The notes under the pieces are model-generated. The model was not told the DNA's origin and did not search any database. It was given only the letters and a program-made list of their open reading frames with translations. This document shows, piece by piece, positions 111 to 21,630 of a DNA stretch of 64,000 nt. The position numbers were made by a program, and so were the translations under genes. Each line of letters starts with the position of its first letter. Position 1 is the stretch's first letter. Origin of the DNA: a virus (Duplodnaviria; Caudoviricetes); the IMG/VR virus record IMGVR_UViG_3300037067_001739, positions 32,001-96,000 of that record, one strand, 5' to 3'.

Positions 111-184
111 GGATGTGTAACTCGATTTGGCAGAGTAGCGGGCTTTTAACCCGAAAGGTGTGGGTTCGACTCCCATCACATCCA
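111..184 (+). tRNA. tRNA-Lys(TTT), no encoded CCA
   Basis: GGATGTG/CACATCC acceptor, loop CTTTTAA, GTTCGACTC. Confidence 0.95.
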
Positions 185-185
185 C

Positions 186-290
186 GTGGGGGATAGTTCA
201 ACTGGTAGAACAATAGGTTAAAGTTGAATGCGACTTTCCCTTGCTCCGTTTAGAGTGAAGATATAGGTTCAATTCCTATTCCCTCACCCA
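186..290 (+). ncRNA. tRNA-like RNA with expanded, non-canonical anticodon region
   Basis: TGGGGGA/TCCCTCA acceptor with G-1, C73 and CCA; normal D and T arms; about 50 nt between the D and T arms. Confidence 0.65.
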
Positions 291-291
291 T

Positions 292-369
292 GCTTGCGTA
301 ACTCAATTAGGCTAGAGTAAACGGCTCTTAACCGTGAGGTTGTGGGTTCGAGTCCCTCCGCAAGCACCA
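292..369 (+). tRNA. tRNA-Lys(CTT)
   Basis: cloverleaf, loop CTCTTAA, CCA end. Confidence 0.95.
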
Positions 370-394
370 CGCACCCCTTTTGTGCGTTTTGATT

Positions 395-599
395 TGTTAG
401 TCTGCTGAGATATGCAGTAATCAGGTCTAGGAGAACTTACTCAGTAGTTATGTTGTAAGGGCAACACAACGACACGATACGGTATGGGTAAGACTAGCCA
501 GATGAGTATGGTAAGCTGGTTGGGTAAGACGTAAAACGAGGCGTTACTAACGGCACGCCTATCCTAGCACCAGTGGGACACCCAAGTCCCATACTGACA
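395..599 (+). ncRNA. unclassified structured RNA candidate
   Basis: nested helices CTAGGA/TCCTAG, CTTACTCAGT/GTTGGGTAAG, AGGCGT/ACGCCT, TGGGAC/GTCCCA between two tRNAs. Confidence 0.5.
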
Positions 600-603
600 A
601 CAT

Positions 604-678
604 GGGGTTATCGTCTAAGGGTCAGGACGGCACTCCCTCGAAGTGCGAATATCGGTTCGAATCCGTTTAACCCTACCA
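604..678 (+). tRNA. tRNA-Glu(CTC)
   Basis: GCACT-CCCTCGA-AGTGC (C33), CCA end. Confidence 0.9.
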
Positions 679-680
679 AA

Positions 681-866
681 ATGGATAATGATAAACTTAT
701 AGAAGAAGTGTGCAAGGTTGAAAATCCTTATGAGTATTCTCAAGGAATGTGGTATGAACCACTACAAGGTTATTTGATGACTCATGAGACAGCAGAAGAG
801 AATTCGGCACATATTGCTTTTGAAGAGTGTCGAGATTTGATTTTGCTTTTGTTAGCGGGAGCGTAG
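681..866 (+). CDS. hypothetical protein (61 aa)
   Basis: ATG 2 nt after tRNA-Glu CCA; stop TAG lies inside tRNA-Ile. Confidence 0.6.
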   Translation: MDNDKLIEEVCKVENPYEYSQGMWYEPLQGYLMTHETAEENSAHIAFEECRDLILLLLAGA

Positions 867-952
867 CACAATTGGCAGTGCAACCGTCTTATAAGCGGTA
901 TTAGGGGCTGATTTCCCCAAGGTTATAGGTTCGAGTCCTATCGCTCCTACCA
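857..952 (+). tRNA. tRNA-Ile(TAT) with long variable arm
   Basis: ACCGT-CTTATAA-GCGGT, extra arm GGGG..CCCC, CCA end. Confidence 0.88.
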
Positions 953-953
953 G

Positions 954-1208
954 ATGAAAGTGACACTTGATTTTCCTGTAATGCACGACAGATGTAACAC
1001 TTGTGAGCACAGATTTGCGTGCTGGACAAGGAAAGTACATGTGGAATTGGATTTAACATATGGAGATGGAAGTTATCATACAATGATACAACCCTTCATC
1101 TTCGGTTTGGATTGCTTTAGACTAGAACCTTGGTCAAGGGTCAGAAATATAAAGCTTGACATCCTTCCAGACGGTACTTCGATGGTGTTAGATTTGTTTG
1201 CAGTATAA
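954..1208 (+). CDS. Cys-motif protein, unknown function
   Basis: CNTCEHRFACWT. Confidence 0.75.
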   Translation: MKVTLDFPVMHDRCNTCEHRFACWTRKVHVELDLTYGDGSYHTMIQPFIFGLDCFRLEPWSRVRNIKLDILPDGTSMVLDLFAV

Positions 1209-1286
1209 CTCCCTATAGCTCAATTGGACAAGAGCGTGTGGCTACGAACCACAAGGTTGCGGGTTCAAGTCCTGCTAGGGAGACCA
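1209..1286 (+). tRNA. tRNA-Arg(ACG)
   Basis: TGTGG-CTACGAA-CCACA, CCA end. Confidence 0.95.
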
Positions 1287-1738
1287 TGAGTGCTAAATCA
1301 AAAGCTAATGGTCATGATATAGTTTACAATGGCAAGGATTGGGTTTACTTGGATAACGGTGAAGTTGTTGACGTAAGACCGTGTGCTCGTTGTGGTGCTA
1401 AACCAGTAGCAGTTAAGGTCAAAATACCAGCCGATTTATCACACACTGGAAAAGAGTTTTGGAAGTACGCTCAAATAGACGCTTGTATTGCTCCCATCGT
1501 TAAAGCGTTACAAGATGCTGGTATAGATATGAGAGGTTCTTGTTGTGGACATGGTAGGGGAGTTGGTGATATAGAACTTCAAGATGGTCGTGCTGTTGTT
1601 ATCCTCAATCCAGAGCAAGCACATACTTTTTATGTTAAGAATGCCCTCGTAGCTGAATTGGAACAGCCGCTCGCTTCTAACGAGAAGAATGAGAGTTCGA
1701 GTCTCTCCGAGGGTGCCAGGGTGGAACTTCGTAGCTGA
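1286..1738 (+). CDS. hypothetical Cys-rich protein; reads through tRNA-Arg(TCT)
   Basis: ATG overlaps the A of the tRNA CCA; CARC and IDACIAPIVKAL..GSCCGHG motifs. Confidence 0.7.
   Translation: MSAKSKANGHDIVYNGKDWVYLDNGEVVDVRPCARCGAKPVAVKVKIPADLSHTGKEFWKYAQIDACIAPIVKALQDAGIDMRGSCCGHGRGVGDIELQDGRAVVILNPEQAHTFYVKNALVAELEQPLASNEKNESSSLSEGARVELRS
1643..1718 (+). tRNA. tRNA-Arg(TCT)
   Basis: loop CTTCTAA, GTTCGAGTC, GCCA end. Confidence 0.9.
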
Positions 1739-1836
1739 CCCGCAACGTGTTGTACGCACGTTTGTTTACGGCACGTGAACATAGTGAAAAAAGTATTAAC
1801 GAATGTGTTAATACGAGGTCAGAGCGTTAAGTACCC
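1719..1836 (+). ncRNA. unclassified multi-hairpin RNA candidate
   Basis: CTGACC/GGTCAG closing three hairpins (AACGTG/CACGTT, TGTTTACG/CGTGAACA, GTATTAAC/GTTAATAC). Confidence 0.45.
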
Positions 1837-1841
1837 TTTAT

Positions 1842-1921
1842 CTCGCTGTAGTCGGGGGAATTTCCTAAATTCTCATCCGTAAGTGGAACTGTAAATGCGA
1901 GTTCAAGCCTCGCCAGCGAGT
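1842..1921 (+). ncRNA. D-armless tRNA-like RNA, apparent anticodon CCT
   Basis: CTCGCTG/CAGCGAG acceptor, GGGAAT-TTCCTAA-ATTCTC arm, T arm GCGAG-TTCAAGC-CTCGC. Confidence 0.55.
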
Positions 1922-2032
1922 CGGGGGATGGGTACAGCCGATGAAAAGGTAAAAAACGGCAATTGATGAATGTCATGCAATACGGGTACGCCTCCACCAT
2001 CGGACTAAGTATGAAATTGGAATAGATTTTTT

Positions 2033-2109
2033 GCGGGTGTAGCCGAATTGGCATAGGCAACAGGTTTAGACCCTGAAATCTGGAAGTTCGAGTCTTCCCA
2101 CCCGCACCA
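2033..2109 (+). tRNA. tRNA-Leu(TAG), short variable loop
   Basis: loop TTTAGAC, A73, CCA end. Confidence 0.9.
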
Positions 2110-2115
2110 TATGAT

Positions 2116-2517
2116 ATGTTTCTGTACATTGCAGTTGATGACAGGACGATAAAAAGCACTTGGAATTGGGACTTTGAGGGTTGCAATTCTTGTCCGCATA
2201 GATTTGAGTGCTACACAGAAGACAGTGCTACTATAAAGCCTGTCAAAGTAGATGAGTGGGAAGCAGATAGCTACCTATATTCTCGCAATTATAAGGCTGA
2301 GTTTCATCTACCAAAATGTATACGAGCAGGGCTATTTAAGCAGATAGCGGATACTGGATATTGGAAAAGCAGTTATCCAACGGATTTCGGTGACGGCTTC
2401 AAGTTAGGTGGAGTGTTTAGTGATGAAGGTGAGCACGTTACAGTTGAGCGTGCGTGGGTAAAGTTTCCTAGCACTCTTTATGTCACTGGCTTAAAGAGAA
2501 AGGTGCGTTGGTGTTAA
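2116..2517 (+). CDS. Cys-motif protein, unknown function
   Basis: CNSCPHRFECYT; stop inside tRNA-Asp. Confidence 0.75.
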   Translation: MFLYIAVDDRTIKSTWNWDFEGCNSCPHRFECYTEDSATIKPVKVDEWEADSYLYSRNYKAEFHLPKCIRAGLFKQIADTGYWKSSYPTDFGDGFKLGGVFSDEGEHVTVERAWVKFPSTLYVTGLKRKVRWC

Positions 2518-2577
2518 TGGTGAGCATACTACCCTGTCAAGGTTGAGGGAGGGGTTCGTGTCCCCTACGCACCGCCA
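2502..2577 (+). tRNA. tRNA-Asp(GTC)
   Basis: loop CTGTCAA, GCCA end. Confidence 0.92.
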
Positions 2578-2870
2578 TGAAAAAGATAATAGCGTATACT
2601 GATGACGACAAACCCTTTGGTGATAGTCCAGAGGATTATCTAGACTATGAGCTACGTGTCATAGACAGAAGGGTAAGGATTGAAAACAAAGAGCGCAAAG
2701 ATAAAGCAACTACTACTATAGAAGGTGCTGTACAAGCGGCTCAGAGATACATGTTTTCGAGTCCTAAAGAATTCCCTATGACTGATACTCTGTTTATGGC
2801 GGAATGCAAACGAAGAAAGGTCGGTGATTGTAGTATCTGTAAACTCAGATTTAGGTGTTGGACAGAATGA
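2577..2870 (+). CDS. Cys-motif protein, unknown function
   Basis: C-terminal CSICKLRFRCWT; ATG overlaps tRNA CCA. Confidence 0.75.
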   Translation: MKKIIAYTDDDKPFGDSPEDYLDYELRVIDRRVRIENKERKDKATTTIEGAVQAAQRYMFSSPKEFPMTDTLFMAECKRRKVGDCSICKLRFRCWTE

Positions 2871-2953
2871 TTATTGATGTTCTTGTAGTGTCGTTATTTT
2901 TATTAATGCTTGGTGGTTCTGTTTGGTGTGCAACAAAATGGGATGTGCATTAA

Positions 2954-3026
2954 GGCATCGTGGTCGAGTGGCTAAGGCGAGCGTCTGCAAAACGCTTTTA
3001 CGTGGGTTCAATTCCCACCGATGCCT
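2954..3026 (+). tRNA. tRNA-Cys(GCA), no encoded CCA
   Basis: AGCGT-CTGCAAA-ACGCT, U73. Confidence 0.95.
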
Positions 3027-3027
3027 C

Positions 3028-3429
3028 ATGAATACAAAAGATATAGGTGATATTACTCAAGCTAAACTAGAACTAAAATTGTTGCTACAAGGTTACGTAG
3101 TATTGACCCCACGTGGTGATAATCTTAGATACGACTTTGTTATTGAGCGTAATGGTAACTTTGATAGAGTTCAGTGTAAGACTGGACGTTACAGAAAAGG
3201 ATGTGTGGTATTTGATACTCGTTCTTCTAGTTGGCACAGAGACGGTAAGAAAGAACCGTATAATAAATATCAGATAGATTTCTTTGGAGTATATTGTCCT
3301 CAGTTGGATAGTTATTACTTGATACCTGTTGAGGATATTGGTGATAAATACCAGTGTAACTTGCGGGTTGATGAACCGAGGAAGAAAAATAATCGTTATA
3401 TTTGGGCAAAAAATTATATTCTGGTGTAG
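3028..3429 (+). CDS. PD-(D/E)XK endonuclease, I-Ssp6803I / group I intron-associated type, free-standing
   Basis: GDITQ..PRGDNLRYDFVIE..RVQCKTG..IDFFGVY pattern. Confidence 0.8.
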   Translation: MNTKDIGDITQAKLELKLLLQGYVVLTPRGDNLRYDFVIERNGNFDRVQCKTGRYRKGCVVFDTRSSSWHRDGKKEPYNKYQIDFFGVYCPQLDSYYLIPVEDIGDKYQCNLRVDEPRKKNNRYIWAKNYILV

Positions 3430-3495
3430 TTCAATCGGTAGAGCAGGCGGCTGTTAACCGTCAAGTTGATGGTTCGAGACCATCCACCAGAGCCA
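3420..3495 (+). tRNA. tRNA-Asn(GTT)
   Basis: loop CTGTTAA, GCCA end. Confidence 0.95.
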
Positions 3496-3665
3496 TGCAG
3501 AGAATAAAGATTCCTGAGTCTAGCTACTTTGTCTATTGTAATGACAAGTGCGAGACGTGCGAGGTCAGATTCAGGTGTTTCACCAGTCGTGAAATGCTTG
3601 TTGTTGATTTACCTACAGCAAAAAGGATAGTCGAGTCTGAATATATGGATTGGTTAATTAGGTAG
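3495..3665 (+). CDS. Cys-motif protein (56 aa)
   Basis: CNDKCETCEVRFRCFT; ATG overlaps tRNA CCA. Confidence 0.72.
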   Translation: MQRIKIPESSYFVYCNDKCETCEVRFRCFTSREMLVVDLPTAKRIVESEYMDWLIR

Positions 3666-3668
3666 TAT

Positions 3669-3743
3669 GGCGGTATCTGCTAATGGTCAGGCAAGCAGGC
3701 TTTCAACCTGGAAACGGGGGTTCAATTCCCCCTACCGCTACCA
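3669..3743 (+). tRNA. tRNA-Glu(TTC)
   Basis: loop CTTTCAA, CCA end. Confidence 0.92.
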
Positions 3744-3744
3744 T

Positions 3745-3862
3745 GCTGTCGTTAATTGGGCAAAGCTAAAGATATTGACGTTACGCTCTTTGCATATGAG
3801 GCTGTACACTGATTATGTAAAGCTGAATATCTTGGTAATTGGGTTCGACTCCCAACGGCGGA
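3745..3862 (+). ncRNA. tRNA-like RNA with a long helix and insert replacing the anticodon arm
   Basis: T arm TTGGG-TTCGACT-CCCAA, CTGTCG/CGGCGG acceptor, AAGATATT/AATATCTT helix around about 50 nt. Confidence 0.55.
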
Positions 3863-3864
3863 AC

Positions 3865-3938
3865 AGCGGTGGAGAATCGGTATTCAAGATGCTCTCATAA
3901 GGCATCCTTCGAGGGTTCGACTCCCTTCCCCGCAACCA
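3865..3938 (+). tRNA. tRNA-Met(CAT), initiator-like
   Basis: loop CTCATAA, 1:72 mismatch, CCCGCAACCA end; lacks the three G-C anticodon-stem pairs. Confidence 0.8.
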
Positions 3939-3939
3939 T

Positions 3940-4013
3940 TTCCCTGTAGTGTAGTGGTAGCACGCAACGCTCTGAACGTTGTAATTCTGGTTCGAGTCCA
4001 GACAGGGGAGCCA
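3940..4013 (+). tRNA. tRNA-Gln(CTG)
   Basis: CAACG-CTCTGAA-CGTTG, GCCA end. Confidence 0.93.
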
Positions 4014-4015
4014 AG

Positions 4016-4333
4016 ATGATACCAAGAAGGATAATGCTAAAAGGCAAAACTGGACACAACGAATATATGTGTTCGGGGTCTTCTTGTGATACTTGTAAAC
4101 TCAGATTTGAATGCTTTACTGAGGATAGAGAACATATACTTTGGTTAGAGTGGGATGAGCTTCACGCAAAGTATAGAGGAATCAGTCCTTCAAGAGTATT
4201 GAGAGACATAATCGGTAGTAAAGTTTGGGTTGAGGGTAGCAGAAGGTTCAGAGAAAATATGGAAAAGGCAAGGAGCTTGCTTCCATCTGAACAGCGTGAT
4301 ATTAGAGTTCAACATTTATTAAGGGAGCTATAG
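4016..4333 (+). CDS. Cys-motif protein, unknown function
   Basis: CSGSSCDTCKLRFECFT; stop inside tRNA-Leu(AAG). Confidence 0.75.
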   Translation: MIPRRIMLKGKTGHNEYMCSGSSCDTCKLRFECFTEDREHILWLEWDELHAKYRGISPSRVLRDIIGSKVWVEGSRRFRENMEKARSLLPSEQRDIRVQHLLREL

Positions 4334-4397
4334 CCCAACTGGCAGAGGTAACTGGCTAAGAACCAGTACAGTAAGAGTTCGAATCTCTTTAGCTCCA
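4324..4397 (+). tRNA. tRNA-Leu(AAG), short variable loop, no CCA
   Basis: ACTGG-CTAAGAA-CCAGT. Confidence 0.9.
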
Positions 4398-4399
4398 CA

Positions 4400-4821
4400 A
4401 GCAAGCAGGACGAGTGAACGCTCTACGGAGAGGAAAGTCCGAACACCTTTGAGCAAGATGCAGGGTAACACCCTGGCAGAGTAATCTGACGATTAGAGCA
4501 ACAGAGACGAGTTGAGATGGACGAAAAAGAGTTAGAAGAAGAACTTCGTAAGCGTAGTGCGTTTTATGAATTGGGATACCAAATTGAACAGTTCAAAAAC
4601 ACACTTCGTAGCGAGTTTGAAAAACTCTTTAAGTTTATACTCAAGTGAAACGGGCAATCTCCATCTGGTGCAACACCAAACAGAAGGCGATGCTAGGTCG
4701 TAATGGACTAAGCGGGATGCGCTCAACGTAGTCTTCGGGTAGGTGGCAAGGAACTTAGCAGTAATGTTAAGTCAAGTCAAATGTTCACATAGACAGAATT
4801 CGGCTTACAGTCCAGCTTGCT
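4400..4821 (+). ncRNA. rnpB: RNase P RNA (bacterial type, lacking P13/P14, enlarged P12)
   Basis: GAGGAAAGTCCG and ACAGAATTCGGCTTA P4 signatures, P1 AGCAAGC/GCTTGCT, GCAACAGAGA, GTGAAACGG, P18 with GTAA loop. Confidence 0.95.
4517..4648 (+). CDS. putative 43-aa ORF embedded in RNase P RNA P12
   Basis: ATG..TGA, MDEKELEEELRKRSAFYELGYQIEQFKNTLRSEFEKLFKFILK, spans the P12 insert. Confidence 0.5.
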   Translation: MDEKELEEELRKRSAFYELGYQIEQFKNTLRSEFEKLFKFILK

Positions 4822-4825
4822 ACAT

Positions 4826-4900
4826 GGTGGTGTTGGTCTATAGGTATGACGGTTGGTTGTGACCCAGCCAAAATGGGTTCGATTCCCATACACCACCCCA
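4826..4900 (+). tRNA. tRNA-His(GTG)
   Basis: G-1, C73, loop TTGTGAC, CCA. Confidence 0.93.
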
Positions 4901-4902
4901 TA

Positions 4903-5346
4903 ATGATAAAAGAATTTCAGAGTGAGAATAGGTTTCTCTCCAATTTTTGGTTCTGCAATGGTGTAACTCTTGATGGTAAGAATTACCCATCTGTAGAGCA
5001 CGCATACCAAGCGGCAAAGACACTTGACGATAAGCAGAGAGAGGCAATTCGAACTGCGAAAACACCAGGAGAAGCCAAGAAGCTTGGCAAATCAGTAACG
5101 ATACGACCTGATTGGGAAGACGTAAAGATTGATGTAATGTACGGTTTGCTTAAACAGAAATTTAGCGAGAGCAACCCATTGTTACTGAAAAAGCTGAAGG
5201 ACACTGGCAATCAGGTGTTGCAAGAGGGTAATTATTGGTATGATACCTTTTGGGGAGTTGACCTAAGAACTGGTAAGGGACAAAATAACTTGGGTAAATT
5301 GCTCATGAAAGTAAGGGATTCATATGAGAATAATGCTCAAAAGTAA
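4903..5346 (+). CDS. NADAR (YbiA-like) family protein
   Basis: FLSNFW, SVEHAYQAAK, WEDVKIDVM, DTFWG, GQNNLGKLLMKVR. Confidence 0.92.
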   Translation: MIKEFQSENRFLSNFWFCNGVTLDGKNYPSVEHAYQAAKTLDDKQREAIRTAKTPGEAKKLGKSVTIRPDWEDVKIDVMYGLLKQKFSESNPLLLKKLKDTGNQVLQEGNYWYDTFWGVDLRTGKGQNNLGKLLMKVRDSYENNAQK

Positions 5347-5647
5347 AATTCACCATATCAAAGTTACTAACGTAGCACCGAATTACGAAGGTAGCATAGC
5401 TATTGACGGTGGGCTTCTTTCCAGAGCCGATATTCTTGAGTACGAACAGGTTCATGTTCTTGACCTGACTAATGGCAACCGCTTCATAACCTACGCTATT
5501 GAAGGTGATAAAGATGAGTGTAGCGTTAATGGTGCGGCGGCTCGATTGGTGAATGTTGGTGATGTTCTAATAATTATGGCATTCTCTATACTAAATGATG
5601 GGGCATCATACGAATTGAAACCCCGCATTGTGGTGTGCGATGGATAA
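5324..5647 (+). CDS. panD: aspartate 1-decarboxylase
   Basis: MLKSKIH..YEGSIAID..NGNRFITYAI..NGAAAR. Confidence 0.93.
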   Translation: MRIMLKSKIHHIKVTNVAPNYEGSIAIDGGLLSRADILEYEQVHVLDLTNGNRFITYAIEGDKDECSVNGAAARLVNVGDVLIIMAFSILNDGASYELKPRIVVCDG

Positions 5648-5819
5648 CCAACTACAGTCTCACCTGTTAAAAGCTTCTATTCAGATGGAAGTAGAAGAAC
5701 TTCTAGAGGGAAAATCAGAGGAATTTAAGGAAGCTTTCTACTTGGGGTTACAATACGGTGTAGAGATACAGAAGGCTTTTCTTGATTTATACTTCGGTAA
5801 AAGCGGGCGAAATTCATAA
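5640..5819 (+). CDS. hypothetical protein
   Basis: overlaps the panD stop; stop inside tRNA-Gly. Confidence 0.55.
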   Translation: MDNQLQSHLLKASIQMEVEELLEGKSEEFKEAFYLGLQYGVEIQKAFLDLYFGKSGRNS

Positions 5820-5878
5820 GGTTGAATGCTGGCTTGCCAAGTCAGACGTAGCGAGTTCAAATCTCGCCGCTCGCTCCA
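5803..5878 (+). tRNA. tRNA-Gly(GCC)
   Basis: CTGGC-TTGCCAA-GTCAG, TCCA end. Confidence 0.92.
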
Positions 5879-5897
5879 AATGGCAATTTACTTAGGC

Positions 5898-5926
5898 TTG
5901 ACTTTGTAAGTGGCATTGTGTATAAT
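5898..5926 (+). promoter_or_regulatory. sigma70-type promoter
   Basis: GGC-TTGACT-17 bp-TATAAT. Confidence 0.75.
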
Positions 5927-6299
5927 AAGGGTGACAGTGGATATAATTGTTGACCAGAATGATGTAGTTTATCGGTACAGGTGCAACGAACAATGTGACG
6001 CTTGTTCAATTAGATACATATGTTATACGAACAAGAATGTAAATGGTGTGGTGCATCTGAGAGGGCAATCCTATTCTGACCTGTTAATGCTTCGTACCAG
6101 ATTGGATTCTCTGATAACTTCACAAGAAGTGTTGTGCTCCTTGTGTTACAGACATGAGCATAAGATAGTGGCACGACCATTAGGTGAGAAGTGTCCAGAG
6201 TGTGGTCACTATATCACTTGTGAAAAGTGTGAAGCTAGTAATTGCAGTTTTCGTGGTGATGGATATAACACAAGCGGAGATTGCATAATGGAAAAGTAA
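5910..6299 (+). CDS. Cys-motif / zinc-finger protein (true start probably downstream of the promoter)
   Basis: CNEQCDACSIRYICYT plus CPEC and CEKC. Confidence 0.7.
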   Translation: MALCIIRVTVDIIVDQNDVVYRYRCNEQCDACSIRYICYTNKNVNGVVHLRGQSYSDLLMLRTRLDSLITSQEVLCSLCYRHEHKIVARPLGEKCPECGHYITCEKCEASNCSFRGDGYNTSGDCIMEK

Positions 6300-6301
6300 T
6301 T

Positions 6302-6378
6302 GCTGGTATAGCCCAATAGGCAGAGGTATCAAGCTCAAACCTTGATTAGTGCTAGTTCGAATCTAGCTACCAGCACCA
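6302..6378 (+). tRNA. tRNA-Leu(CAA), short variable loop
   Basis: TCAAG-CTCAAAC-CTTGA, CCA. Confidence 0.9.
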
Positions 6379-6400
6379 ATGAGATATATTACGGTATAAT

Positions 6401-6478
6401 GGGAGTGTAGCTTAACGGTATTAGAGCCTCCGTCTCCAAAACGGCAAGATGAGAGTTCGAATCTTTCCACTCCTGCCA
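6401..6478 (+). tRNA. tRNA-Trp(CCA)
   Basis: loop CTCCAAA, GCCA end. Confidence 0.93.
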
Positions 6479-6514
6479 AATCTCCAGTCTTCAAATATAA
6501 TTAGAGGGGATGTT

Positions 6515-6835
6515 ATGCGTGGTGCTAGACTTTGGCGAGCTATTAGAAAAGCGGAACGTGTTTTTAAGAAGTATGAAGGTTTTAATCCACGAAATGAAAA
6601 ACAAAGTGGATTTTATCGTAGCAATAGATGGACAAAGGACGAGATAAATAGAATCGTAGGAATCTACCGCAAAACAAAAGTTCCATGTTCTTGTTTTATG
6701 TGCGGTAATCCTAGAAGACATTGGGGATATTTACCAATAAGAGAGGTACGACAGCACTTGAACGCCGATTCGCAGTATGATGAAATCGGTTGGAATCATA
6801 GAAAACATAGATGGTTAAGAGGATGGTTAGAATAG
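6515..6835 (+). CDS. basic hypothetical protein
   Basis: SD GAGGGG upstream; CSCFMCGNPRR motif. Confidence 0.65.
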   Translation: MRGARLWRAIRKAERVFKKYEGFNPRNEKQSGFYRSNRWTKDEINRIVGIYRKTKVPCSCFMCGNPRRHWGYLPIREVRQHLNADSQYDEIGWNHRKHRWLRGWLE

Positions 6836-7179
6836 CAGAGGTTGATTTGAGTAAAGAGTATGCTCATAAGTATTATCTAGAACATAAAGAAAAGATAATA
6901 GCAAATGCACGTAAGAATGAAAGAATTTATGAGACAAGAGTGCGTGGGTTTATACGAGATTATTTATCAGCACATCCTTGTGTAGATTGCGGCGAGGCAG
7001 ACATAGTTGTCCTTGATTTTGACCACATTGATGGCACTAAAGAAATGTCTGTTTCTCAGATGATTAGATGGGGGTTTTCATTAGACAGGATAAAAGCTGA
7101 GATTGCTAAATGTGAGGTTCGTTGCTCTAACTGTCATAGAAAACGGCACGCAATTGAACGAGGTTTTTGGCGAGTATGA
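6811..7179 (+). CDS. HNH-type endonuclease
   Basis: CVDCGE..LDFDH..CEVRCSNCHRKRH. Confidence 0.8.
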   Translation: MVKRMVRIAEVDLSKEYAHKYYLEHKEKIIANARKNERIYETRVRGFIRDYLSAHPCVDCGEADIVVLDFDHIDGTKEMSVSQMIRWGFSLDRIKAEIAKCEVRCSNCHRKRHAIERGFWRV

Positions 7180-7245
7180 TGCAACATAGGCAGACATACC
7201 TCTCTTAAAAAGAGGTTTTTGGAAGTTCGAATCTTCTTGCTCGCA
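7170..7245 (+). tRNA. tRNA-Leu(TAA), short variable loop, no CCA
   Basis: CCTCT-CTTAAAA-AGAGG. Confidence 0.88.
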
Positions 7246-7267
7246 CAATTATAGCCATAGAAAAGGC

Positions 7268-7296
7268 TTGACATTAGGTTAGGCTCATGCTATAAT
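7268..7296 (+). promoter_or_regulatory. sigma70-type promoter
   Basis: TTGACA-17 bp (GGCTCATGC)-TATAAT. Confidence 0.85.
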
Positions 7297-7333
7297 AGGT
7301 ATAGTTAGAAACTATAGAAGGAAAGGAAAGGAC

Positions 7334-7708
7334 ATGACTGCTAAAAAATTCGGACTTGAGGAACTTGGGAAGTATGAAGCTGAGGTCGGGTTTAAGAAGA
7401 GTGATGTACGCACGATTAAAGGGGTCTGCGCTATTGTAGACCTTCCGATGACAGTCGTACCAGAAGCAAAGGAAATCATTTCTACGCTGAATGGTAACGT
7501 TGTTGCGGCACAGGGTAAGATTGCGGAAATCGAGACTGCTGAAGCAAAAGCGGAGCAAGTCCTGAAGGAGAGCATCGCAAAGATGAAGTCCGACAGAGAG
7601 ACTGCTAAAGCAACCAATAAGCTTGAAATCAACACGCAGAAGAAAGTACAAGGTAGCTTCAATAGCGAAGTAGCACGCTTGGAAAAACTTCTAAAGAATT
7701 TTTCCTAA
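7334..7708 (+). CDS. coiled-coil hypothetical protein
   Basis: SD AAGGA, own promoter, E/K/A-rich helical C-terminal half. Confidence 0.75.
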   Translation: MTAKKFGLEELGKYEAEVGFKKSDVRTIKGVCAIVDLPMTVVPEAKEIISTLNGNVVAAQGKIAEIETAEAKAEQVLKESIAKMKSDRETAKATNKLEINTQKKVQGSFNSEVARLEKLLKNFS

Positions 7709-7714
7709 CATCGG

Positions 7715-7874
7715 CTGAGTACGGTGGATTTGCCTAACTAGCCCTTGGGAGTATCCTTGAGGCTAAAGGGATAACTAGGCAGAAGGGGGAAAATCTAACC
7801 AGTTTGAGTGAACTGTGACCATCCCTTAGTGGCATGGTATCCGCTGTGGAAGGTAGACAGTCAACTGTACTCAG
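7715..7874 (+). ncRNA. unclassified structured RNA candidate (160 nt)
   Basis: terminal helix CTGAGTACGGT/ACTGTACTCAG, inner TAGCC/GGCTA and AAGGGAT/ATCCCTT. Confidence 0.55.
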
Positions 7875-7878
7875 AAAT

Positions 7879-7951
7879 GCCGAGGTAGCTCCAACGGTAG
7901 AGCGACAGATTGAAACTCTGTGCGTTAGAAGTTCAAATCTTCTTCTCGGCA
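7879..7951 (+). tRNA. tRNA-Phe(GAA), no full CCA
   Basis: ACAGA-TTGAAAC-TCTGT. Confidence 0.93.
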
Positions 7952-7952
7952 C

Positions 7953-8306
7953 ATGGAATGTAAACTCTGTGGAAGAGTATTAAAAGGTAGTAGAAGAAAA
8001 CGCTGTAATTCTTGTAACACTAAGATAAGAAGATACAGAGCAAAGAAAGCCGCCGTTGCTTACTTGGGTAGTAAATGTAACAGGTGCGGTTGGTGTGGTA
8101 ATATTGCGGGATTTGACTTTCATCACAGAGGTGATAAAGATTTTAATATCGGTAATGTAGCTAATAAGAGTTGGGAAATTATAAAACAAGAATTGGATAA
8201 GTGTGAGTTATTGTGTGCTAATTGCCATAGGATAGAACACTCAGACAATTCTTCTGAAGCATTTCTAATTGAGGTAAACAACTATAAAGGTAAACTATTA
8301 GTATAA
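7953..8306 (+). CDS. HNH-type endonuclease
   Basis: CNRCGW..FDFHH..CELLCANCHRIEH. Confidence 0.8.
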   Translation: MECKLCGRVLKGSRRKRCNSCNTKIRRYRAKKAAVAYLGSKCNRCGWCGNIAGFDFHHRGDKDFNIGNVANKSWEIIKQELDKCELLCANCHRIEHSDNSSEAFLIEVNNYKGKLLV

Positions 8307-8307
8307 T

Positions 8308-8396
8308 GGGTTAGCGGCAAAGTTGGAGAGTTGCCCTCGTCTGTAAAACGAGTGTCCTTAGCGGCTGAGTAGGTTCGACTCCTATCTAACCCACCA
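8308..8396 (+). tRNA. tRNA-Tyr(GTA)
   Basis: CTCGT-CTGTAAA-ACGAG, long variable arm, CCA. Confidence 0.95.
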
Positions 8397-8527
8397 TGAA
8401 ATGTAGCTGTGGTGAAGAAGCAAAATATGTAAAGAAACCGCTAATCGGCAAGAAGCAGTATCTATGTATTTATTGTGTGGTTGCTTCTTTGAATGGTTGT
8501 GCTTTAATAGAGCCAATAGATGATTGA
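8396..8527 (+). CDS. small zinc-finger-like protein (43 aa)
   Basis: ATG overlaps tRNA CCA; MKCSCG..LCIYC. Confidence 0.5.
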   Translation: MKCSCGEEAKYVKKPLIGKKQYLCIYCVVASLNGCALIEPIDD

Positions 8528-8795
8528 TAAACTAATACAACCGAAGCGACTATATTGTACCGTTTGTGACGTATTATTATTGCCAGACTTCAATTTGAGT
8601 TGTCCAGTGTGCGGCACAACATTGACTACTTGTTGGTGGGCTTTGTTGAATAGAAAAACCAAGGTCAAAGAGCATTGTAAGGATTGTCAGAATAGATTCT
8701 GGTGTTGGACACATAAAGCGGGTGACGAAAAGCGACTCCCGACAGTCACACAGGCACAGATAGTCCAGAATGCTAAATTTGGTGAAAAACAATGA
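8520..8795 (+). CDS. zinc ribbon + Cys-motif protein
   Basis: CTVC..CPVC, CKDCQNRFWCWT. Confidence 0.75.
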   Translation: MIDKLIQPKRLYCTVCDVLLLPDFNLSCPVCGTTLTTCWWALLNRKTKVKEHCKDCQNRFWCWTHKAGDEKRLPTVTQAQIVQNAKFGEKQ

Positions 8796-8965
8796 GCGAA
8801 GAAACAGTAGGCATGAAGAAAGTGAACGGAGAATGGATTAAGATTGTCCGTGTGTTTTGCCCCAAGTGTGGAAAAGAAAGACTAGAGATAACTGCCGATG
8901 GTAAATATAAATGTGTAGCTTGTGGTACTGAATTTACTAAAGGTAGAGAAAGACTAGAAAACTAA
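8792..8965 (+). CDS. small zinc-ribbon protein (57 aa)
   Basis: ATGA overlap; CPKCG..YKCVACG. Confidence 0.6.
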   Translation: MSEETVGMKKVNGEWIKIVRVFCPKCGKERLEITADGKYKCVACGTEFTKGRERLEN

Positions 8966-8967
8966 TT

Positions 8968-9041
8968 GGGGGCTTAGTTCAGTGGGAGAACAATTCCCCT
9001 GCAAGGAATAAAGACGAGTTCGAGTCTCGTAGCCTCCACCA
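8968..9041 (+). tRNA. tRNA-Ala(TGC)
   Basis: G3:U70, loop CCTGCAA, ACCA. Confidence 0.92.
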
Positions 9042-9081
9042 AGTGACAGAGTTCAGAGGTTTCTGAGTGATGCACAATTTT

Positions 9082-9154
9082 ACGGGAATAGCTCAGTGCA
9101 GAGCGTCAGATAGTGCTTCTGAAGGCAGTGGTTGAACTCCACTTTCCCGTACCA
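9082..9154 (+). tRNA. atypical tRNA (loop TAGTGCT, nominal anticodon GTG)
   Basis: all four stems intact plus ACCA, but A33 and T loop TTGAACT. Confidence 0.55.
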
Positions 9155-9226
9155 TGAAGAACGAGGCGTCATTACACGCCTACAAGTCACTTATACTTCC
9201 ACAGTCACCTTCGGGTGCTGTGCGGT

Positions 9227-9304
9227 GCAGTAAAGACGGTGGAATTCCGTATAGTAGACAAGCGCATCTACTGTGAGTTAGAGCTTCACATTCTCACATA
9301 CTGC
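9227..9304 (+). ncRNA. four-way-junction RNA candidate
   Basis: GCAGTA/TACTGC closing ACGG/CCGT, AGTAGA/TCTACT and GTGAG/CTCAC. Confidence 0.4.
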
Positions 9305-9309
9305 GTCAT

Positions 9310-9385
9310 CGGAGTGTAGCTCAGTTGGTTCTAGAGCACATCGTTTGGGGCGATGGGGTCGGTGGTTCAAGTCCACTCACTCCGA
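9310..9385 (+). tRNA. tRNA-Pro(TGG), no CCA
   Basis: CATCG-TTTGGGG-CGATG. Confidence 0.95.
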
Positions 9386-9387
9386 CA

Positions 9388-9472
9388 GGGTTGAGCGTGG
9401 TAAGTAGGAAAGCCCGAATAAGAGACCGAAAGGTTTCGGAATGCTGAAAACGGCATTCAACCATAGCAACCC
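9388..9472 (+). ncRNA. unclassified structured RNA candidate
   Basis: GGGTTG/CAACCC closing a GAAA-tetraloop hairpin and GAATGCTG/CGGCATTC. Confidence 0.45.
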
Positions 9473-9478
9473 ACTTCT

Positions 9479-9536
9479 TGGGCTGTACCTATGGTTAGGT
9501 GATGCGCATAACGGGTTCGAATCCCGTACAGTCCAC
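9479..9536 (+). ncRNA. anticodon-less mini tRNA-like RNA
   Basis: TGGGCTGT/ACAGTCCA stem, ACCT/AGGT D-like arm, ACGGG-TTCGAAT-CCCGT; only 10 nt where the anticodon arm should be. Confidence 0.6.
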
Positions 9537-9669
9537 ACACTTAGTAGGCTTTGGGGAAAAGTGTTGCGAAGATTGATGTATAGATAGAAGATATTTTTCT
9601 GTCTGAGTCTTCAATCGAATGTATTACGATTTTTAAGGGATAATACCCAAAGATATTACTCCCTTATTT

Positions 9670-9746
9670 CAGGGTGTATTGTCAATTGGTAGACGGCGTG
9701 CTTTGGAGGCATGAGGTTACGAGTTCGACTCTCGTCACCCTGACCA
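9670..9746 (+). tRNA. tRNA-Pro(TGG), second divergent copy
   Basis: CGTGC-TTTGGAG-GCATG, CCA. Confidence 0.9.
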
Positions 9747-9970
9747 TGAAATATTACTGCTTTGAATGCCAGACGGTATTCGCACATGGCAGTGAAACTA
9801 GGGTTGTTGGGTCTGGTGTCCAGACACGACACTATTGTCCCACTTGCGGCGCACTTGTTCGTAGTTGCGTAAACATCATACGAAGCATTGGTAAATTTCC
9901 ACCAGAATTTGATGCGGCAGATTGCGATAAGTGTCACTGGAGATTTAGGTGTTTCACTGGTGGATGGTAA
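9746..9970 (+). CDS. zinc ribbon + Cys-motif protein
   Basis: ATG overlaps CCA; CFEC..CPTC; C-terminal CDKCHWRFRCFT. Confidence 0.75.
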   Translation: MKYYCFECQTVFAHGSETRVVGSGVQTRHYCPTCGALVRSCVNIIRSIGKFPPEFDAADCDKCHWRFRCFTGGW

Positions 9971-10402
9971 ATTTGAGTATTGGGGGTTAACATGATTATT
10001 ATATGGGAACAGAATGACGCTGAAAAAATTACTCCTGGCGTAGTGCTCGGATTTGTTGAAACTGATGAAGAATTTAAGATAGCCGCTCTAGAGCTTATGA
10101 GTCAGGGCAAAAAGATACTAGCTGGTGACGTGACTCCTATTACTATAAAATACGTTCCCGCAGACGTAACGCTAGATAGACTTATAACGAAGGTTTAATA
10201 TGGAACGTTACGAGAGGCGTGAAAAGAAGCTTGAGTCCAAACGTAATAAGATGAAGAAACATGGCAGAAACATCGGAATCATTTACAAAAACGCTCTTGA
10301 CAAAAGAGCCACTAATTAGAAAAGCTTATCGTAGCCTTAATAAAAAGTACAAGATTATAAAGCGTGAAATTAGAGAACGTATTAAACATGACCACGCTAC
10401 AT

Positions 10403-10475
10403 GCCGCTGAAGCTCATCAGGATGAGCGATGGTTTTGTAAACCATAGGCAACGGGTTCGAATCCTGTCAGCGGCT
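10403..10475 (+). tRNA. tRNA-Thr(TGT), no CCA
   Basis: ATGGT-TTTGTAA-ACCAT. Confidence 0.92.
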
Positions 10476-10489
10476 CGTAAGGGGGATAA

Positions 10490-10693
10490 ATGGAAGAAGA
10501 TTACATGAATGTCTGCTGTCCTTTCCTTGACATAGCTGATTGTGAAGACACTGATGAGCATGGTCACCTTTATTGTACAACAAATGGTGACTTTATGAAT
10601 TTTGGTATGACACACAAGTATTGCGTTTCGGAAGATTGGGAGAAGTGTCCTCATTTCATGGCTTACCCCATTCAAATCCCCTTTACAGAATAG
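10490..10693 (+). CDS. small Cys-rich protein
   Basis: SD AAGGGGG; CCPF..YC..YC..KCPHF. Confidence 0.6.
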   Translation: MEEDYMNVCCPFLDIADCEDTDEHGHLYCTTNGDFMNFGMTHKYCVSEDWEKCPHFMAYPIQIPFTE

Positions 10694-10765
10694 CCACCAA
10701 AGCTTATGAGGATAAGCAGTTGTTTCGTAAACAACAGATAGTGAGTTCGAATCTCGCTGGTGGCT
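10693..10765 (+). tRNA. tRNA-Thr(CGT), no full CCA
   Basis: GTTGT-TTCGTAA-ACAAC. Confidence 0.9.
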
Positions 10766-10766
10766 C

Positions 10767-11234
10767 ATGAATAAAGGTTGGGTTGAACCAGAGAAGTATA
10801 ACGAAATTTGTAAACTGATTCCTATTGTTGCCGTAGATGTTGCGGTATTTCATGGCGACAGGTTGCTCTTACTAAAGAGACAGATGCCACCGATACAAGA
10901 TACTTGGTGTCTTCCAGGTGGCGGAATTAGGTTAGGTGAGAATCCGTACATGACGGCTTCACGTGAGCTTGAAGAAGAGACTGGCATCAAAACTCTTAAT
11001 TTCGTTCAGGTTGGCAGTGCAGTCACGTACCTATTTGACTTCAAACAGAATGTCGGACTTGGTATGATAACCAAGGTGGATAACCCAACTGAAGTTATCA
11101 TGGATGGTGAGCACAGTGATTATGGTTGGTTCAATATTTTCGACCTTCCAGAACCGATAGACGAGCAGATGATGGCTCAAATCAAGAGTTGTATTTGCGC
11201 ATATCATGAAAAAGGGTGGATGTTGGATGCTTGA
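10767..11234 (+). CDS. NUDIX hydrolase (GDP-mannose hydrolase-like N-terminus)
   Basis: PGGGIRLGENPYMTASRELEEETGI Nudix box. Confidence 0.9.
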   Translation: MNKGWVEPEKYNEICKLIPIVAVDVAVFHGDRLLLLKRQMPPIQDTWCLPGGGIRLGENPYMTASRELEEETGIKTLNFVQVGSAVTYLFDFKQNVGLGMITKVDNPTEVIMDGEHSDYGWFNIFDLPEPIDEQMMAQIKSCICAYHEKGWMLDA

Positions 11235-11459
11235 ATTTGTCGTGCTAGGCGTTAGTTTGAGTCTAGTTGAGATTCTGATACATATAGTAATTGACTTATG
11301 TATTTGCATTCCTATCTGTATGCACTTCTGTAAAAGAGCTTGCAGAGCAGATGCTAAAAAACATAGACACGAAAATTAACACAAGTTTAACGTGACTGTA
11401 ATCTGATTGTAATACGACTGTGCTATAATGTAACTGAGAGTATATTCTCAGGAGGCATT

Positions 11460-11549
11460 ATGGAAGTTGTATTAGCTGTAGTAGCTTTTATCGTTTTGTT
11501 TGGTGCTTGGGTAATTGTTCCTACCATCATAAAAAAGCGGAAGAAGTAA
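11460..11549 (+). CDS. 29-aa single-TM membrane peptide
   Basis: SD GGAGG; MEVVLAVVAFIVLFGAWVIVPTIIKKRKK. Confidence 0.65.
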   Translation: MEVVLAVVAFIVLFGAWVIVPTIIKKRKK

Positions 11550-11550
11550 T

Positions 11551-11636
11551 GGAGAGTTGGCAGAGCGGCTTATTGCGGTTGTCTAGAAAACAATTGAGCG
11601 AAAGCTCCAGAGGTTCAAATCCTCTACTCTCCGCCA
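11551..11636 (+). tRNA. tRNA-Ser(AGA)
   Basis: loop CTAGAAA, long variable arm, GCCA. Confidence 0.92.
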
Positions 11637-11729
11637 TAGTAGAGTTGCCTCAGTGATAAGGGCGAAGTCTGGAGACACGGTTTGTCATGTTGGTTCGAGT
11701 CCAACTCAGATGGTATCATAACTCTACTA
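11637..11729 (+). ncRNA. tRNA-like RNA with 10-bp closing stem
   Basis: TAGTAGAGTT/AACTCTACTA, GCCT/GGGC D-like arm, GTTGG-TTCGAGT-CCAAC. Confidence 0.5.
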
Positions 11730-11732
11730 CTT

Positions 11733-11819
11733 GGAAGGTTGGCTGAGTGGGTTAAAGCGGGCGTCTTGAAAACGTCAGGGTCAACAGCCCCGTGAGTTCG
11801 AATCTCACACCTTCCGCCA
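11733..11819 (+). tRNA. tRNA-Ser(TGA)
   Basis: loop CTTGAAA, long variable arm, GCCA. Confidence 0.95.
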
Positions 11820-11923
11820 CACCAGCACTTTTCGTAAGCAAGAGGCAGGGTAGTAAGCGAAAGCTGAAATCCCTGATGCTGGTGTATAAAGGTATGGTAT
11901 GGTTCAGATAGAGAGGTTGAATC

Positions 11924-12514
11924 ATGTCATACGAAGTTAGCAGAGACGAGATAAAAGAAGGCACGAATGTAGCGTTCCCACAGGATGGTTGCATTAGTCC
12001 ATTTTTGAGCACTATCCTCAGTTGGTTTGAGCCAGATTGGAAGAACGTAAATCCAAAGTTCTGGCACGTTGGTTTCATCGTTCACAAAGATACGATTGAG
12101 TCAGCTATAAAGAGAAACTACTTGGTTGAGGACTTTGTAGCACCTGACCCAAATGACGATGAATGGTGGGTATGTGAATCTATAACTAATGGTGTTTCAT
12201 TAACCCCTCTAAGCAAGTACGATGACACAGAGTTGAGGTTCTTTAATATCATACAGAATCAACCAACCAGAAGTAAAGTAGCGGATTATCTAGCATTCTT
12301 TGTTGGTAGACCATATGATGGTTTGGTCTATGTGTGGACGGTAGCCGCTGAGTTGCTAGAAAAAGTACGCATTCATTTAGGTAATTGGAATAACCTTTCC
12401 TTTACATGTTGGGAGAACCTAGAAGCATTCATGGACTTTATTGGTGAAGGAATGGTTAAAGATTACGACCACATTATGTGTACTGATTTCGCAAGAGCTT
12501 GGGGACTCGTTTAA
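11924..12514 (+). CDS. permuted papain-like (NlpC/P60 YiiX-like) protein
   Basis: FWHVGFI..GRPYD..FTCWE order (His before Cys). Confidence 0.55.
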   Translation: MSYEVSRDEIKEGTNVAFPQDGCISPFLSTILSWFEPDWKNVNPKFWHVGFIVHKDTIESAIKRNYLVEDFVAPDPNDDEWWVCESITNGVSLTPLSKYDDTELRFFNIIQNQPTRSKVADYLAFFVGRPYDGLVYVWTVAAELLEKVRIHLGNWNNLSFTCWENLEAFMDFIGEGMVKDYDHIMCTDFARAWGLV

Positions 12515-12524
12515 TCCCCACCAT

Positions 12525-12599
12525 TGCCGAGTCGTCTAAAGGTAGGACGGTGGTCTTTGAAGCCATCTACGAGAGGTTCGAGTCCTCCCTCGGCAGCCA
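12525..12599 (+). tRNA. tRNA-Gln(TTG)
   Basis: loop CTTTGAA, GCCA. Confidence 0.93.
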
Positions 12600-13494: not shown

Positions 13495-13740
13495 TTATTT
13501 AATGGTTGAGGTTTTATCCTCTGGGGGACTGCATCTTTCTTTCTCATCAACTTCCTCTTTTACTACACCGTAATAACGTTTAGCCCATGCTTGCTCTGTT
13601 GTCATAGCACGTTTGACCTCATCAAAGGAAGTCGCTTTCTTTATACTGTTCCTCAGTTCGAGTAACCTGTCTAAAGAAGAATCAACGTATCCCTTGATGA
13701 AGTCGTTCTTGAACTGCTCTAACGCCTTATCGTCTGCCAT
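13495..13740 (-). CDS. hypothetical protein
   Basis: ORF coupled to the CCA enzyme gene. Confidence 0.55.
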   Translation of the reverse strand: MADDKALEQFKNDFIKGYVDSSLDRLLELRNSIKKATSFDEVKRAMTTEQAWAKRYYGVVKEEVDEKERCSPPEDKTSTIK

Positions 13741-19654: not shown

Positions 19655-20163
19655 TACTTTGTCTCCAACAGTTGCAATACCATTTTCCTGAAATACTCTT
19701 GACCATCTGGATATAAATACCCATCTGTAGTCTCATCTTCACAACTCTTTATATTTTGTCTATAATCTTCTGCATGTTTGACTTCCATCAGTACCTTGTT
19801 CATACGAGCCTGTATCTGCTTGTAGTCCATTTCTACTGCTATCCATTCGGCATCAGGTTGAGGATTACCAGCAGTCCAGCATTTGAACCTTTGGTTACAC
19901 TTATCACAGTTCTTAAACTCGACTTCCTTTTCCTTTATTCGGCACTGCTCAAATTTCCATTCGTCAGTATTCTTTTTTATAAAGTAATCTCTAGCTGTAC
20001 CTTTTGGTACATTAGAGATATTCGGATGCTTGCCAGAAAGTCTACCAGTTACCGTTCCTACGTGAGTATCGGACAGTACAAGTATAGTATTTTCTGGAAT
20101 GTCCTCACTTACCAATATCGGTAAATTTTTTATCACAAGAGCGTTCTCCGAATGACTCAACAA
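19654..20163 (-). CDS. Cys-motif protein
   Basis: CDKCNQRFKCWT; start uncertain. Confidence 0.65.
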   Translation of the reverse strand: MLSHSENALVIKNLPILVSEDIPENTILVLSDTHVGTVTGRLSGKHPNISNVPKGTARDYFIKKNTDEWKFEQCRIKEKEVEFKNCDKCNQRFKCWTAGNPQPDAEWIAVEMDYKQIQARMNKVLMEVKHAEDYRQNIKSCEDETTDGYLYPDGQEYFRKMVLQLLETK

Positions 20164-21319: not shown

Positions 21320-21630
21320 TAGTTGTCCTCGGCTTCCGTAAAACATTTGAACCTAGTTCTACATTTATCACATATGGCTAGTCGCTTATCCAAAGGAAGC
21401 TTTTTGCTACAACAAAAATGCAGGTCAACCCTATCACGAGAGTTGATTGTACCATACTTTGTCCTGTATGCGCTATATCCGTAACTACCATCTTTGTTAC
21501 GTTTAGCCCTTGGTGTACAGTCTATACACCATGTAAAGTGTCTACCGTACTTCCTGAAACACTTAGGACATATTTTGTAGTAACCATTACTTGCCATAAT
21601 ATTATTCGGTGGCGTGACCAAGCATTTCAC
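21319..21630 (-). CDS. Cys-motif protein
   Basis: CPKC..CIDC; C-terminal CDKCRTRFKCFT. Confidence 0.7.
   Translation of the reverse strand: MKCLVTPPNNIMASNGYYKICPKCFRKYGRHFTWCIDCTPRAKRNKDGSYGYSAYRTKYGTINSRDRVDLHFCCSKKLPLDKRLAICDKCRTRFKCFTEAEDN

Follow-up and report, generated by a model that had tools for sequence, protein, structure and literature searches.

A phage-borne RNase P RNA with a 133-nt P12 hairpin that contains a 43-codon open frame

We have identified a bacterial class-A RNase P RNA in an uncultured phage, where it lies within an array of tRNA genes and carries an enlarged P12 element. The phage ribozyme, its hairpin P12, and the exchange of cassettes in the specificity domain are the solid results of this study. 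P12 also contains a 43-codon open frame, and we consider that this frame is probably an incidental by-product of a structural or neutral hairpin, not a maintained gene. The phage carrier, the tRNA-array setting without rnpA, and the cassette behaviour of P12 set this RNA apart from known RNase P RNAs.

Results

An RNase P RNA gene in a phage tRNA array

The window, a stretch of 64,000 nucleotides, belongs to a 134,397-nt IMG/VR virus record of an uncultured phage with an estimated completeness of 90%. ARAGORN located 30 tRNA genes at 111-12599, and these form an array that encloses the RNase P RNA gene. The features of this setting are given below in window coordinates.

4324..4398, + strand: tRNA-Leu(AAG), from ARAGORN and the Rfam tRNA model (57.3 bits); its 3' end lies 4 nt before the ribozyme
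4402..4823, + strand: RNase P RNA, bacterial class A, without P13/P14 (Rfam RF00010, 175.6 bits)
4827..4900, + strand: tRNA-His(GTG), from ARAGORN and Rfam; it begins 4 nt past the ribozyme
13727-15076, - strand: tRNA nucleotidyltransferase (CCA-adding enzyme)
20105-21346, - strand: PurZ-like adenylosuccinate synthetase, which hints at 2-aminoadenine DNA
61594-62751, - strand: RtcB-type tRNA ligase

A clamp loader is also encoded by the phage record. In public phage genomes, the flanking tRNA-Leu was the only match. A preliminary description of this DNA, made from its letters, had recognised an RNase P RNA and proposed an alignment to RNaseP_bact_a (RF00010) as a check. This alignment bears out the identification, as the match at 4402-4823 (+) covers model positions 1-367, the full model, at 175.6 bits, compared with a gathering score of 100.

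A search of the whole 134-kb record with PF00825 gave no match for rnpA, indicating that the RnpA protein of the host would be needed. The RNase P RNA is of a working type by its sequence and would be transcribed within the tRNA array. The processing events that release the tRNAs on either side presumably also set this RNA free, which would presumably then join host RnpA.

Core structure and covariation

The elements of the ribozyme to which we refer below are as follows.

4431..4440, + strand: P4 5' strand / CR-I (AGGAAAGTCC), invariant in alignment A1 save for a G to C change in L062
4500..4511, + strand: J11/12 module (AACAGAGACGAG), kept in all relatives irrespective of P12
4512..4644, + strand: P12 expansion, a lineage-specific 133-nt imperfect hairpin (45 bp, 7 G.U, 15-nt loop)
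4517..4648, + strand: 43-codon ATG-TGA frame from the ORF list, within P12; stop codon TGA at 4646-4648
4645..4651, + strand: J12/13 GTGAAAC, invariant columns in alignment A1, and seen too in the Rfam covariance-model alignment
4793..4807, + strand: P4 3' strand / CR-V (ACAGAATTCGGCTTA)

The window RNA has all the conserved regions. Both strands of the P4 helix were found (CR-I, AGGAAAGUCC; CR-V, ACAGAAnnCGGCUUA), together with J11/12 ACAGAGA, J12/13 GUGAAA, the GGU of the P15 region, and P18. GTGAAAC directly adjoins the 3' strand of P11, both in the window and throughout the phage relatives. Accordingly, P13/P14 are absent, and P12 takes up the whole interval between J11/12 and J12/13. The specificity domain is reduced to P10/11, J11/12, P12, and J12/13. 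The placement of the insert in P12, made earlier from the letters, is confirmed by the covariance-model alignment and by the alignment of the relatives.

Relatives were recovered by pattern scans of viral and metagenome contigs, and they score 171-209 bits against RF00010. All recovered phage RNase P RNAs lie in tRNA arrays, where most of them abut tRNAs. Matches to the J11/12-J12/13 motif came mostly from Burkholderiales, with some from CPR and other groups, and the best core identity was only about 72-82%, which is not informative on the host. For covariation, eight full-length phage RNase P RNAs (the window and seven others, alignment A1) were examined with RNAalifold. Changes on both sides were present in 40 of the 64 consensus pairs, and the covariation backs helices P1-P3, P5, P7-P11, P15, and P18. 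The G to C change of CR-I in L062 is also found in L063 and L064 and is compensated in the P4 3' strand. In these three RNAs, AGGAAACTCC is paired with CGGGTTA, which represents a compensated change from G-C to C-G in the catalytic P4. Judged by such sequence comparison, the members of this phage RNase P RNA family are ribozymes under selection.

The P12 hairpin

The base of P12 had been described as TTGAG and CTCAA enclosing about 120 nt with no obvious long helix. The first part is correct, since TTGAG (4512-4516) pairs with CTCAA (4640-4644). The second part is not, since 4512-4644 forms one continuous 45-bp hairpin. Its minimum free energy is -40.2 kcal/mol, compared with a mean of -22.8 for dinucleotide shuffles (z -5.31), and none of the 200 shuffles was equally stable. 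The same hairpin is obtained when the whole ribozyme is folded. When 133-nt windows of phage coding sequence were folded, 4.2% were at least as stable as P12, indicating that the hairpin is not extreme for the coding sequence of this phage.

The preliminary description had also held that a covarying helix in the insert would speak against a gene. The long helix is present, and covariation was seen at its base, the sole testable part, where three basal pairs show compensatory changes among the eight phage RNase P RNAs. Further, the stem has 7 G.U pairs versus 1 A.C mismatch. This excess is only suggestive, as it comprises 8 events, and it would fit pairing that is kept in the + strand RNA, not a neutral DNA palindrome.

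In its own genome, no second copy of the P12 insert was found beyond a 17-nt match, which is described below. P12 as a repeated mobile hairpin (MITE-like) was rejected on this ground, and the inserts of L004 and L002 are likewise single-copy.

P12 in relatives

The length of P12 differs greatly among the phage RNAs. It is absent in L003 and measures 14 nt in L065, L069, and L007, 24 nt in L064, 38 nt in L031, 69 nt in L062, 96 nt in L002, 109 nt in L070, 120 nt in L004, and 133 nt in the window. The inserts are mutually unrelated in sequence and the base helix is conserved. The earlier remark that P12 is peripheral and length-variable therefore applies to this clade, with a range from 0 to 133 nt and unrelated sequences.

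This phage occurs in groundwater and landfill studies (runs X1-X5). Metagenome contigs aligned to the window gave a depth several-fold higher over the core than over P12. In three metagenome runs, contig joints occur exactly at 4511->4645, and in some contigs of co-occurring relatives, 14 or 24 other letters replace the 133 (4512-4644). Considering that contigs skip or replace exactly 4512-4644, P12 behaves, at the level of the assembled contigs, as a cassette with fixed boundaries. Other copies of the window insert were found in three further assemblies, L066, L072, and L073, and in a contig of run X1, all of which are identical to the window across the ribozyme. The first three show 5 differences from the window, all at 5476-5544. 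No variants inside P12 were seen among the metagenome contigs, and no homologous insert was found in any relative. In the nearest relative of the same gene order, L062/L063, the flanks are about 78-84% identical and P12 is an unrelated 69-nt sequence.

Open frames also occur in other inserts. In the 109-nt P12 of L070 (1339-1447, +), one + frame has no stop codon between a TTG in the opening bases of the insert and J12/13, through which it continues. The P12 of L062 has a fully open frame on the - strand, and the insert of L004 has a 38-codon open run. As the inserts of L070 and L062 are unrelated to that of the window, their open frames provide an empirical control for open frames in P12, and they count against a gene in the window insert. 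An ATG-to-stop frame that stays within P12 is found in none of the other four long inserts.

The RNase P RNA of L003 (461-767, -), wedged between tRNAs, scores 68.8 bits, which is under the gathering score. It has no P12 (GACGAGAAATGTGAAAC) and has extra sequence in the P5-P9 region.

HNH cassettes in the specificity domain of relatives

In L064, a 158-codon HNH ORF lies in an insert of about 490 nt between P10 and P11, with an 11-bp closing stem. Type-B RNase P RNAs have P10.1 between P10 and P11. In L005 (924-1797, -), an insert of about 530 nt with a 167-codon HNH ORF replaces J11/12, P12, and J12/13. This ORF passes the Pfam HNH cut-off (PF01844, 26.7 bits). As in L064, a stem of 11 bp closes the insert. 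L071 (-) is 88% identical to L005 over 607 nt and has the 5' junction in common with it; the L071 contig ends before the 3' junction of the HNH insert. GAGG precedes the HNH ORFs of L064 and L005 by 6-7 nt. These inserts leave no room for an intron core, and no intron family came up in L005, L064, or L071. P3 of L005 is also about 80 nt longer.

L064 (1550-2364, -) and L062 (3928-4286, +) are 99% identical on both sides, and the sole difference between them runs from GACGAT to the end of P12. The L064 allele consists of the HNH gene, AGTGACGAA (an altered J11/12), and a 24-nt P12, and the L062 allele has no HNH gene, AGAGACGAG, and a 69-nt P12. This difference looks like homing, with a flank that may have been co-converted from a donor of the L065/L069 type. 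From these alleles, we consider the specificity domain of these phage ribozymes to be a hot spot for cassette exchange. Such a hot spot raises the prior that the content of P12 is cargo, but it does not by itself establish this status for the window frame.

The insert of the window shares with the HNH cassettes of L064 and L005/L071 a stem-closed form and a location in the specificity domain of one RNA family. The stem-closed HNH cassettes indicate that this site in the specificity domain accepts cargo. The HNH cassettes are, unlike the window insert, about 500 nt long, have GAGG ribosome-binding sites, and are paired only in the terminal 11-bp stem. The earlier suggestion of a gene sheltered inside a ribozyme is borne out in L064 and L005/L071 by their HNH ORFs; for the window frame itself, we judge it less likely than an incidental frame. 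The P12 insert as a relic of an HNH gene was rejected, since BLASTP gave no alignment to the HNH proteins of L064 and L005 (E up to 100) and Pfam gave no match.

The 43-codon frame

Read from ATG 4517 to TGA 4646-4648, the frame translates to exactly the 43 residues quoted in the preliminary description. Its stop codon is supplied, as was noted there, by the conserved GTGAAA, with TGA falling inside GTGAAAC (4645-4651). Six other frames of 38-77 codons overlap the ribozyme gene and its immediate flanks.

A real micro-gene, for which the ribozyme RNA doubles as messenger, is in our view a rather unlikely explanation of this frame. In that case, ribosome loading on the nascent 5' arm would precede transcription of the 3' arm, and the UGA in J12/13 would end translation. 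The product would be a 43-residue helical peptide rich in Glu, Lys, Leu, and Phe, after which P12 would fold and the RNA would act as RNase P. P12 would then be a slot for small-gene cargo, as the specificity domain of relatives is for HNH genes, and the stem-closed inserts with ORFs of 158 (L064) and 167 codons (L005/L071) in the same domain favour this.

On the one hand, the frame is unusual for chance and gene-like in its codon usage. An ATG-to-TGA frame that fills the P12 slot is rare in shuffles: dinucleotide shuffling gave ATG frames of at least 43 codons in 0.06% of cases and hairpin-preserving shuffling in 0.2%, and frames of this length with any start arose in 0.9% and 0.6%, respectively. 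Codon usage was scored as log-odds trained on the 89 long ORFs of the phage. The frame scores 0.35, and the real genes of the phage have a mean of 0.29 (sd 0.14). It outscores the other two frames of the insert (0.35 versus 0.05 and -0.07) and is the top scorer among the 30 frames of five long P12 inserts. A score of 0.35 was reached by 1.2-1.5% of hairpin-preserving shuffles, by 2.5% of stop-free wrong-frame windows, and by 0.6% of frames in tRNAs and the ribozyme core.

On the other hand, the frame has neither a recognisable ribosome-binding site nor an accessible start codon. No Shine-Dalgarno core (GGAG, GAGG, or AGGA) is present in the 25 nt upstream of ATG 4517, and 54% of the long ORFs of the phage have such a core upstream. 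The would-be leader of the ORF is the conserved J11/12 module (4500-4511). The start codon (4517-4519) is paired with 4636-4638 in the 10-bp basal stem of P12. Also, base pairing extends over the entire insert, in contrast to the real HNH cargo, which is only closed by an 11-bp stem. No related insert was found in any relative, and no homologue of the peptide was found in a word-indexed search of 5.8 billion clusters. With phmmer over 1.84 billion representative proteins, only two repeat-rich coiled-coil proteins were obtained besides the window's own protein, and the 43-residue peptide matches no Pfam family. Of the runs listed for this stretch, none is an RNA run.

The composition of the peptide can be read in the same direction, because the translation of any hairpin with a purine arm and a pyrimidine arm would have it. 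Of the 45 pairs of P12, 24 are codon-in-phase, so that Glu/Lys codons are mirrored by Phe/Leu codons and stop codons are suppressed. This mirroring of the hairpin arms accounts for the amphipathic look of the peptide. AlphaFold2, run on the single sequence, predicted one helix at residues 3-42 with a pLDDT of 95.6, which is expected of any Glu/Lys/Leu-rich sequence. The codon score is 0.49 in the 5' half and 0.27 in the 3' half, and it comes mostly from GAA, AAA, AAG, and GAG of the purine-rich 5' arm.

The higher score of the 5' half could also be expected if the insert were a remnant of coding DNA that was captured and now yields no protein. A gene fragment would have been copied into P12, for example as filler during the repair of a nuclease cut in a region that is often targeted, and would then have been turned into a hairpin by inverted duplication or reshaping. 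The 5' arm would then owe its gene-like codons to this origin, with no need for translation today, and HNH cassettes with co-converted flanks do occur at this site in near-isogenic relatives. Two matches point to a possible source. Insert positions 8-24 (window 4519-4535) match genome positions 134264-134280 exactly over 17 nt (BLAST E 8e-4 within the genome), inside a real ORF near the end of the record and in the same frame (Asp-Glu-Lys-Glu-Leu). In addition, a metagenome contig of run X1 shares window 4513-4545 (33 nt) with flanks that differ on both sides, and these flanks are open in the frame of the ORF on the assumption that the shared 33 nt equal the window sequence. However, both matches are short and purine-rich and could be due to chance. 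The X1 flank is absent from the viral contigs searched and also from this genome, the insert has no similarity to the HNH genes of relatives, and the L004 and L002 inserts each occur only once in the genome that carries them. Considering both sides, we regard a captured relic as quite improbable.

Discussion

We consider an incidental frame in a P12 hairpin to be the best explanation of the data. In this phage clade, P12 would be a stem-closed site at which expansions are tolerated, and its content would be exchanged as a whole from one lineage to another. The purine-rich 5' arm would read as GAA, AAA, GAG, and AAG (Glu and Lys), and the pyrimidine-rich partner arm as TTT, CTT, and CTC (Phe and Leu). 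With about half of the pairs codon-in-phase, stop codons would be suppressed, and the open frame would happen to end at the fixed TGA of GTGAAAC. The lack of a homologue and of a Shine-Dalgarno core in our searches, the paired ATG, and the swapped P12 of relatives lead us to this explanation. Against it, such a frame is rarely expected by chance, and its codon usage is mid-range among the real genes of the phage. The HNH genes of relatives also count against it, since real genes can sit in this domain, as does the fact that the hairpin is not extreme for the coding sequence of the phage. We also weighed a specificity domain that is a swappable cargo slot, with the 43-codon frame as genuine cargo that ribosomes would translate during transcription, ahead of P12 folding; we judge this to be unlikely.

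The incidental frame and the translated frame have different consequences. If the frame in P12 were translated, the RNA would be a ribozyme and an mRNA; to our knowledge, a ribozyme that doubles as mRNA has not been described so far. If it is not translated, the window gives a caution that long hairpins with a purine arm generate gene-like open frames unaided.

RNAIII/hld of S. aureus, SgrS/SgrT of E. coli, and SR1/SR1P of B. subtilis are dual-function coding small RNAs. The ORFs of RNAIII, SgrS, and SR1 are conserved, have ribosome-binding sites, and were shown to be translated. The window RNA is similar to them in that a stable functional RNA, here a ribozyme, holds a short open frame. It differs from them in being a ribozyme, not a regulator, and in having a frame without the core of a ribosome-binding site.

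RNase P RNA counts as a housekeeping ribozyme of cells, and our literature search on virus-encoded RNase P RNA found no paper. The M1 RNA of E. coli (rnpB) is a bacterial class-A RNase P RNA, and P13/P14 are typical of class A. Unlike cellular class-A RNA, the window RNA is phage-borne, is flanked by tRNAs in a tRNA array, and comes from a record without rnpA. Also unlike cellular class-A RNA, its P12 is 133 nt long and is swapped between close relatives. Loss of P13/P14 is not unusual in bacteria and is common in the RNase P RNAs of CPR, together with large helix extensions, and loss of P12 has been termed highly unusual (PMC8172020). The window RNA is reduced and without P13/P14, like the CPR form of class-A RNase P RNA (PMC8172020).

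As for foreign sequence in P12, the present insert has a counterpart in cells. Vioque reportedly described, in 1997, insertions of STRR repeats in the P12 of heterocyst-forming cyanobacteria. In both cases, distal P12 tolerates foreign sequence and the helix base and junctions are kept. Unlike the STRR insertions, the window insert is a single unique hairpin and not a genomic repeat, and it has a full-length open frame. P12 contains no universally conserved nucleotide and is sometimes dispensable, for example in cyanobacteria (PMC2858038). In the phage clade, a peripheral ribozyme helix is rebuilt with great freedom, from nothing to a 133-nt hairpin and, in one relative, to a whole nuclease gene.

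The gene set of the phage suggests that some phages import a nearly complete line for tRNA production and repair. With 30 tRNAs, RNase P RNA, a CCA-adding enzyme, and RtcB, the window has an extensive kit for tRNA supply and repair. At window 4397-4401, the discriminator A4397 of tRNA-Leu(AAG) is followed by CAAG, not CCA. The CCA end of this tRNA is therefore not encoded by the gene, which fits the phage's own CCA-adding enzyme.
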